Origin: a bacterium
GTDB lineage: Bacteria; UBA8248
Direction of reading: 5' to 3'
Length of the DNA: 64,000 nucleotides
NCBI GenBank assembly: GCA_965203325.1
Contig: OZ241875.1
Coordinates: forward strand, 2,016,001 to 2,080,000
Shown: piece by piece, positions 62,025 through 62,227 of the stretch
How positions within the stretch are numbered: the first letter of the stretch is position 1
Layout: each line of letters begins with the position of its first letter
Notes under the pieces: model-generated
What the model was told of the DNA's origin: nothing
What the model saw: only the letters and a program-made list of their open reading frames with translations
Databases searched by the model: none
Position numbers and translations under genes: made by a program

Positions 62025-62227
62025 GTCCGCTAATTGACGTTATCGGAAAGTTAAACACCTCTCACGGCCATGTCAAGCGCAATTCCGGGGTCCCCGGAGG
62101 GGTTTCGGGCGCCGTTTTGCGTCTTTTTTCGCTCATGTTTCGCTCATTTGCGGCCCGAATGCGCCCCAAATCGGGTTTTTCGGCGGAAAACGGGGTTTCT
62201 GGGGGCCGATAACGTCAATTATCGGAC
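62025..62227. promoter_or_regulatory. Putative invertible promoter segment
   Basis: 22-bp inverted sites at 62025-62046 and 62206-62227 (21/22 match); minus-strand TTGACA(62076-62071)-17 bp-TAACTT(62053-62048) lies inside. Confidence 0.75.

Follow-up and report, generated by a model that had tools for sequence, protein, structure and literature searches.

A probable Cre-type invertible promoter switch ahead of an adhesin-like gene, one of sixteen paralogous switches in a bacterial genome

Introduction

As a general mechanism, promoter inversion is already known from textbooks, and Mpi of Bacteroides fragilis is a single serine recombinase. The capsule promoters of that species, in the excerpted source (PMC10403206), which names the recombinase of the invertible promoters ssr2, are dispersed, combinatorial, mostly OFF and under one recombinase activity in trans; the switches reported here appear to be alike in these respects, whereas the cargo there is polysaccharide loci and here adhesins and lipoproteins. 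Closest in logic is the mpl (P35-family) system of Mycoplasma penetrans, with 38 surface-lipoprotein genes each turned ON or OFF by promoter inversion (PMC10502178, in excerpt). Those genes lie in three clusters in a wall-less pathogen, whereas here the loci are dispersed, carry two classes of cargo, and have switches that would each originally have had a recombinase gene of their own. The ipuS, fimS and hyxS switches of uropathogenic Escherichia coli (PMC6083910, in excerpt) share with ours an invertible promoter flanked by a tyrosine recombinase gene on one side and an autotransporter (UpaE) operon on the other, short inverted repeats, and recombinases common to several switches. They are three in number and use Fim-type enzymes, inverted repeats of 7-16 bp and a 260-bp segment, whereas the present set comprises 16 switches with a Cre-type enzyme, lox-like dyads with a locus-specific spacer, and a segment of 159 bp.

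Cre/loxP of phage P1, as treated in the excerpted part of PMC10250229, shares with the locus the protein family, the catalytic set, and a palindromic site with an asymmetric spacer near the recombinase gene; the GATA motif beside the spacer here resembles the G(T)-A-T(G)-A motif that the same excerpt gives for active Cre-type sites. The loxP site has 13-bp arms and an 8-bp spacer, whereas our clean dyad extends 7 bp around six variable bases. Cre/loxP-type pairs have a single site, whereas here two inverted sites flank a promoter. Among the papers listed by our literature searches, none describes this switch system in its title or the opening of its abstract, and the searches turned up no report of invertible promoters in uncultured sponge symbionts. 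The term 'phase variation' is absent from PMC10250229, and the main text of the DeepInverton paper with its GTDB-wide inverton lists (PMC11602134, in excerpt) mentions neither sponges nor Nitrospinota.

We analysed a 64,000-nt stretch of contig OZ241875.1 (assembly GCA_965203325.1, positions 2,016,001-2,080,000), hereafter the window, from a bacterium of the lineage UBA8248. Coordinates are those of the window except where a position in the whole genome or in another record is indicated. One end of this stretch carries what is very probably an invertible-promoter phase-variation switch with a Cre-type recombinase, assembled in the adhesin-ON state.

Results

The two sites, 62025-62046 and 62206-62227, form an inverted pair, identical at 21 of 22 positions and exactly 159 bp apart, and both cores consist of a 7-bp arm, an asymmetric 6-bp spacer and a second 7-bp arm, just as the initial annotation had described them. 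The left, cargo-side core (62027-62046) is made up of an outer arm at 62027-62033, the spacer at 62034-62039 and an inner arm at 62040-62046, with the match to the right site reaching outward to 62025. In the right, recombinase-side core (62206-62225), the inner arm occupies 62206-62212, the spacer CGTCAA 62213-62218 and the outer arm 62219-62225. The intersite segment is thus 62047-62205, and the predicted flipping unit, which includes the inner arms, is 62040-62212. Twenty shuffled versions of the window contained 0 inverted pairs of 22 bp with at most one mismatch and 100-400 bp apart, while the real window has the locus pair and, besides it, two other inverted repeats, one at about 0.6 kb and one at about 16.9 kb. 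Around the right site lies an imperfect palindrome with 32-bp arms (62181-62250; I11, 75% complementary) that exists in the ON state only, the distal end of the segment resembling the recombinase-side flank; it is a possible cause of the OFF bias reported below.

The segment carries a predicted sigma70 promoter on the minus strand (62048-62076), facing the adhesin gene, with the -35 element TTGACA at 62076-62071, a 17-bp gap and the -10 element TAACTT at 62053-62048. It had been called near-consensus, which overstates the match: the -35 is perfect, but the -10 agrees at only 3 of 6 positions. A consensus promoter scan of 61000-64000 called 0 promoter sites. Most paralogs have TATATT or TAAATT as the -10, with a 16-bp gap and TG ahead of it, and the -35 is conserved at an identical offset in all 16 copies of the genome. 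The -10 of the locus stops 1 bp short of the left site, so transcription would start inside the inner arm. From these elements we infer promoter activity of the segment.

The genome to which the window belongs (G000; 4.39 Mb in one contig) holds 16 such site pairs, every one 159 bp apart. The segment keeps this length in all of them, with 8-16 differences between the other copies and that of the locus. Thirteen segments face the recombinase-side flank (OFF) and three face the cargo (ON), the latter being the window locus and those at genome positions 2672535 and 3869513. In flipped copies, variants of the inner arm travel with the segment end and variants of the outer arm remain with the flank, a pattern that places the crossover within the 6-bp spacer. 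The two spacers are identical in 15 of the 16 pairs, compared with a permutation mean of 2.6, and a count of 15 was reached in 0 of 200,000 permutations. The spacer CGTCAA occurs at four loci of this genome, and since spacers are not unique, insulation between loci would be only partial. On a tree of the segments the ON copies, six of the 49 pairs described below, are scattered, requiring five changes of state, at least four of them forced by well-supported branches, and none of 200 bootstrap trees gave ON a single origin. Spacers are mismatched in one pair only (genome 3371526/3371705; L149); this pair flanks a segment identical to the 159 bp at 1029512, and may be a recent duplicate with one spacer change, locked OFF.

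The recombinase gene is intact at six of the 16 loci, truncated at seven and absent from three. The window locus is the sole ON copy that adjoins an intact gene; the other two ON copies lack one. That ten loci have no intact enzyme and that two of these are ON point to action in trans. The initial annotation had given the switch its own recombinase, and an intact Cre-type gene does adjoin it, but as one of 16 switches, ten of them without an intact enzyme, it is likely to share such enzymes with the others. Orientation in sequencing runs was checked on Logan contigs from four runs. Opposite-strand joints at 62005-62213 (run X6) and 62054-62206 (run X2) fit OFF junctions but are indistinguishable from those of OFF paralogs; among the contigs listed, one is identical to the locus across the right site (X2 record 14, 62173-62300), and it is ON.

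Switch DNA had matches in 11 of 22 same-genus genomes and in 13 of 41 genomes searched. The same switch occurs in Nitrospinota records L063 and L065, and 8 of 20 runs containing the stretch are labelled sponge metagenome. One further genome, G012, has 16 complete pairs, 14 OFF and 2 ON, and a further pair truncated where a contig ends. In five relatives a strict pattern search found pairs in only two, because the arms vary, and we turned to fetched regions. The scan covered G000, 35 such regions and eight loci of other lineages, with the -35 as anchor and partners recognized by their arms only, the spacer being unused. This gave 49 pairs from nine genomes, and none from four of the 35 regions or from any of the eight other-lineage loci. 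Six pairs are ON and 43 OFF. Spacers are identical within 48 of the 49 pairs, in 22 spacer types, where 100,000 permutations averaged 3.0 and never exceeded 12, a contrast whose significance, like that of the G000 figures, is overstated by the kinship of the loci. Matched spacers are what strand exchange needs, non-identical spacers being inhibitory to Cre recombination (PMC10850332, in excerpt).

More telling than the permutation figures is that both spacers changed together at two syntenic loci, 2672535 in G000 with L030 in G012, and 1713266 with L023. At the first of these, the spacer is CAGCAA and the state ON in G000, while L030 has TAGCAA and is OFF; both flanks are 96-97% identical, and a recombinase gene is present at neither. 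In Latescibacterota, three loci (L083-L085) lie before similar genes of ~1060 aa and have three spacers, each matched within its pair; all three are ON, with one inner arm decayed. A further G012 record (L028:4178-7922) contains a 3.7-kb cassette of lipoprotein gene and switch without a recombinase, which is absent at the syntenic G000 position 928695-928728; short palindromic repeats abound at its edges, where no clear target duplication was seen.

The recombinase gene (62342-63214, plus strand, ATG at 62342) encodes an intact 290-aa protein and is divergent from the adhesin gene. Its description as Cre-like is borne out by structure matches: the best in PDB are to Cre (E 1.5e-12), and 17 of 19 are to Cre or Tre. 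All six residues of the catalytic set are in place (R138, K163, H237, R240, W263 and Y272), and the protein is 80-96% identical to the five other intact copies of the genome. Against NCBIfam models of Fim-type invertases, which are about 200 aa long, it scores 21.9 and 18 bits with cut-offs of 222 and 221, and with these scores and a length of 290 aa we rejected a FimB/FimE/Ipu-type invertase. Scores with the XerC and XerD equivalog models are 48.5 and 34.3 bits (cut-offs 335 and 330), and 16 site pairs are dispersed over the genome in place of a single dif; a XerC/XerD-dif system was likewise rejected. With 38 PF00589 (tyrosine-recombinase) matches in the genome, another recombinase could formally still be the flipping enzyme.

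The link between this enzyme family and the site is one of association. In a set of 80 loci with recombinase homologs, 78 genes were scorable, and GATAA-N6-TTATC with at most one mismatch was found within 650 bp upstream of 36 of these, compared with 1 of 76 downstream controls and 26 of 2340 shuffles. An inverted pair with matched spacers precedes 17 of the 78 genes and 0 of 1560 shuffles; these 17 loci are mostly from the same genus, with L067 (Entotheonella) and L070 (Dehalococcoidia) among them. The upstream site occurs across phyla, often as a single copy, and the clean dyad of single-site relatives reaches about 13-15 bp, with longer arms in, e.g., L075 and L111. In the distant homologs L068, L075, L086 and L103, some of which have longer arms, one site lies directly behind TTGAC, 77-177 bp before the gene. 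The lox-like site thus appears to be the native target of this Cre-like family. The ancestral layout would have been promoter, site and recombinase, which is the OFF arrangement, and the promoter would have become invertible when a second, inverted site was gained upstream.

Two 10-bp direct repeats within the recombinase gene (62509-62518 and 63184-63193, plus strand) bound a 675-bp stretch that is undeleted here. Its deletion fits the truncated recombinases at seven paralogous loci, and runs X2 and X3 have contigs with the same skip. On the opposite strand, at a distance of ~1.5 kb from the switch and past the HTH gene, there are degenerate copies of the C-terminal part of the recombinase, at genome positions 1997551-1997688, 4229348-4229473 and 2587758-2587885 and at three more places. 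They are followed by DNA like the cargo-side flank, and are perhaps the remnant of a second, inverted module.

Between the switch and the recombinase gene we found a predicted intrinsic terminator (62239-62278, plus strand) that the initial annotation lacks, with a 10-bp stem, a 12-nt loop and a run of eight T; the loop length made a promoter and terminator scan miss it. The hairpin begins 13 nt past the core of the right site. Its folding energy is -25.9 kcal/mol (z -4.32), and 0 of 200 shuffles were equally stable. The stem is perfect in 11 of the 16 genome copies, and 15 have a T-run of 7-8. Beyond it, TATACT at 62301-62306 (plus strand) is a candidate -10 of a separate recombinase promoter, with a weak -35.

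The cargo ORF (57751-61920, minus strand) starts with an ATG 107 nt from the left site and encodes a protein of 1389 aa with a long signal peptide, fn3, a cadherin-like beta-sandwich, two Calx-beta domains, and a C-terminal beta region ending in W. It had been termed an autotransporter. In favour of this, ESM Atlas language-model features group its C-terminal part with PF03797 clusters (0.96), and the model of the barrel, of low confidence (pLDDT 41.6), is all beta strands; against it, a Pfam hmmscan called no PF03797 autotransporter domain. Foldseek with the low-confidence barrel model gave no match with an E value of 0.001 or lower. We therefore keep to the cautious term autotransporter-like. 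Calls of tRNA-Ala(cgc) by ARAGORN in the DNA of adhesin barrels (58666-58737 of the window; genome 710499, 1257701, 2559617 and 4235605) look false, the DNA being GC-rich and coding.

Genome-wide, the 16 cargos comprise nine autotransporter-like adhesins and seven lipoproteins with a lipobox, and all have a signal peptide or a lipobox leader. Two leads concern the lipoproteins: Atlas features suggest TbpB-like C-terminal barrels (0.91-0.93), and an NCBIfam Slam-lipoprotein match is sub-threshold (19.3 against a cut-off of 80). A single-sequence AlphaFold model of a lipoprotein cargo has a helical stalk and a beta domain of low confidence (pLDDT 57.5). Matches of the signal-peptide region to the NCBIfam 'lipo-invert' domain, at 23.4 and 16.6 bits against 37, were treated as spurious. 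At 61681, where the adhesin signal peptide ends, contigs from each of the four runs cease to agree: the leader is common to them as far as the cleavage region, but beyond it they split into many different sequences, as do the paralogs. It appears that passenger domains are swapped behind one shared leader. Some switches (L146:7807-12492 and L151:7160-12591) precede two-gene arrays, either of tandem lipoproteins (724 and 715 aa) or of a passenger without a barrel (999 aa) and, behind it, a partner that has one (806 aa). Nor is the cargo always an adhesin: L061 and L062 have a Tat-like leader, and L032:15420 is a 393-aa ORF of cytoplasmic look.

Several genes of mobile-element type surround the switch. 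An HTH_17 (excisionase-like) gene (63303-64000, minus strand, 239 aa) is convergent with the recombinase gene and starts just past the window. The region of this gene has 11 copies in the genome, ten of which adjoin a switch. Downstream of the cargo lies a repeated module (51172-57750, minus strand) with genes for a NikA/MobC-like protein, a YAcAr SLOG protein, DUF4326, SSB and a zinc-ribbon protein, and the SSB, DUF4326, SLOG and NikA-like genes recur alongside switches together with the HTH_17 gene. A tandem pair of integrase-type tyrosine recombinases (17197-19523, plus strand) is likely the far end of an island, and for ten of the 11 tandem integrase pairs examined a switch lies on the same strand at a distance of 31-92 kb. 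The switch module thus likely closes an island of ~47 kb whose other end is the tandem integrases, with limits estimated from the sequence. At the island ends and apparent empty sites we found no att sites and no target duplications; with separate tandem integrases at the far ends, the Cre-like enzyme was set aside as island integrase.

Some features of these islands are noted in their own right. The tandem pairs, at 17197-19523 and at ten other places in G000, encode ~390-aa proteins that are about 65% alike within a pair at the DNA level; they mark a multicopy island family and are followed by an HTH-like ORF. In the lower-GC part of the island, 47350-49461 encodes a 703-aa protein with a SIR2-like domain, a possible defence gene. 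In the lower-GC interior (21948-44328), many ORFs have an N-terminus resembling a signal peptide and belong to no assigned family.

Discussion

The proposal of a promoter inverted by a Cre-like enzyme and assembled with the adhesin ON, already made in the initial annotation, is upheld by the orientations of paralogs and syntenic copies, the crossover within the spacer, the matching of spacers within pairs, and the tie between site and recombinase. In the mechanism that we consider very probable, a Cre-type recombinase would flip the promoter segment between two inverted lox-like sites; in the ON state the promoter would drive the adhesin gene, and in the OFF state it would fire into the predicted terminator. 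Six intact recombinases would act in trans on all 16 switches, and the result would be a combinatorial display of nine adhesins and seven lipoproteins at the surface that is biased to OFF. The switch would descend from an ancestral promoter-site-recombinase unit that acquired a second, inverted site on its upstream side, and would have spread with multicopy genomic islands. Termination at the hairpin and ongoing flipping at the locus are what we infer from the DNA.

It had also been suggested that the OFF-oriented promoter transcribes the recombinase gene, so that OFF cells make more enzyme and revert to ON. Such a promoter does point towards the recombinase, and partial read-through of the terminator is possible, but a strong predicted terminator stands between site and gene and its stem is conserved in most copies; the OFF promoter thus likely yields a short terminated RNA, and a loop is unlikely at this locus. 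The candidate -10 of the recombinase gene itself also argues against it, and a loop would predict a bias to ON, whereas OFF prevails in the 49 pairs. We find the feedback loop unsupported here; it may exist at L067 and L070, which are without a run of at least six T between site and gene. A different doubt is whether the switches still move: inversions may belong to the past, with orientation now fixed, or very slow to change, per locus or strain, and ON and OFF a matter of strain variation. An OFF junction assignable to the locus was not found in the contigs, the one locus-identical contig being ON; recombinases are lost or broken at most loci; one spacer pair is mismatched; and L083-L085 combine a decayed inner arm with a uniform ON state. 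Yet spacers drift between orthologs while remaining matched in all pairs but one, which implies continuing selection or homogenisation by recombination, and the persistence of six intact recombinases and the scatter of ON over the segment tree speak against it too, making frozen switches quite improbable.

The dyads might instead be operators, with the neighbouring HTH protein or the recombinase as the repressor, or the mobile element might use them for resolution. Like an operator, the site directly adjoins the -10; the single sites beside recombinases of other phyla resemble resolvase sites, and the module sits on repeated islands. However, operators leave unexplained the exact 159-bp inversion with its crossover in the spacer, and spacers that differ between loci yet match within pairs, and switches persist at loci that lack the HTH gene or the recombinase; inverted sites, as established for Cre (PMC10250229, in excerpt), cannot excise or resolve the DNA between them. 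Sites of either kind, in place of a regulatory switch, are very improbable indeed, and we retain the invertible promoter as our reading of the locus.

A broader proposal, plausible but for now tentative, is that of a natural Cre/lox-type switchboard, in which one Cre-like family runs at least 16 dispersed promoter switches per genome and the locus-specific 6-bp spacers serve as addresses, promoting inversion between the two sites of a pair while restraining exchange with sites at other loci. Such a system might have had a single origin in a promoter-lox-recombinase module, borne on islands and co-opted for surface variation in sponge-symbiont phyla that are unrelated (Nitrospinota, Entotheonella, Latescibacterota and probably Dehalococcoidia). 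If this is true, locus-specific spacers would do in nature what heterospecific lox sites do in engineered systems. The Cre-type recombinase is a candidate tool for genome engineering: it is compact, its target is predicted, and 22 spacer variants occur naturally. For the symbionts themselves, the 16 fixed junction pairs offer a precise read-level test of surface variation towards host cells or phages, and the locus and its paralogs suggest that uncultured sponge symbionts vary their adhesins and surface lipoproteins combinatorially by phase variation.
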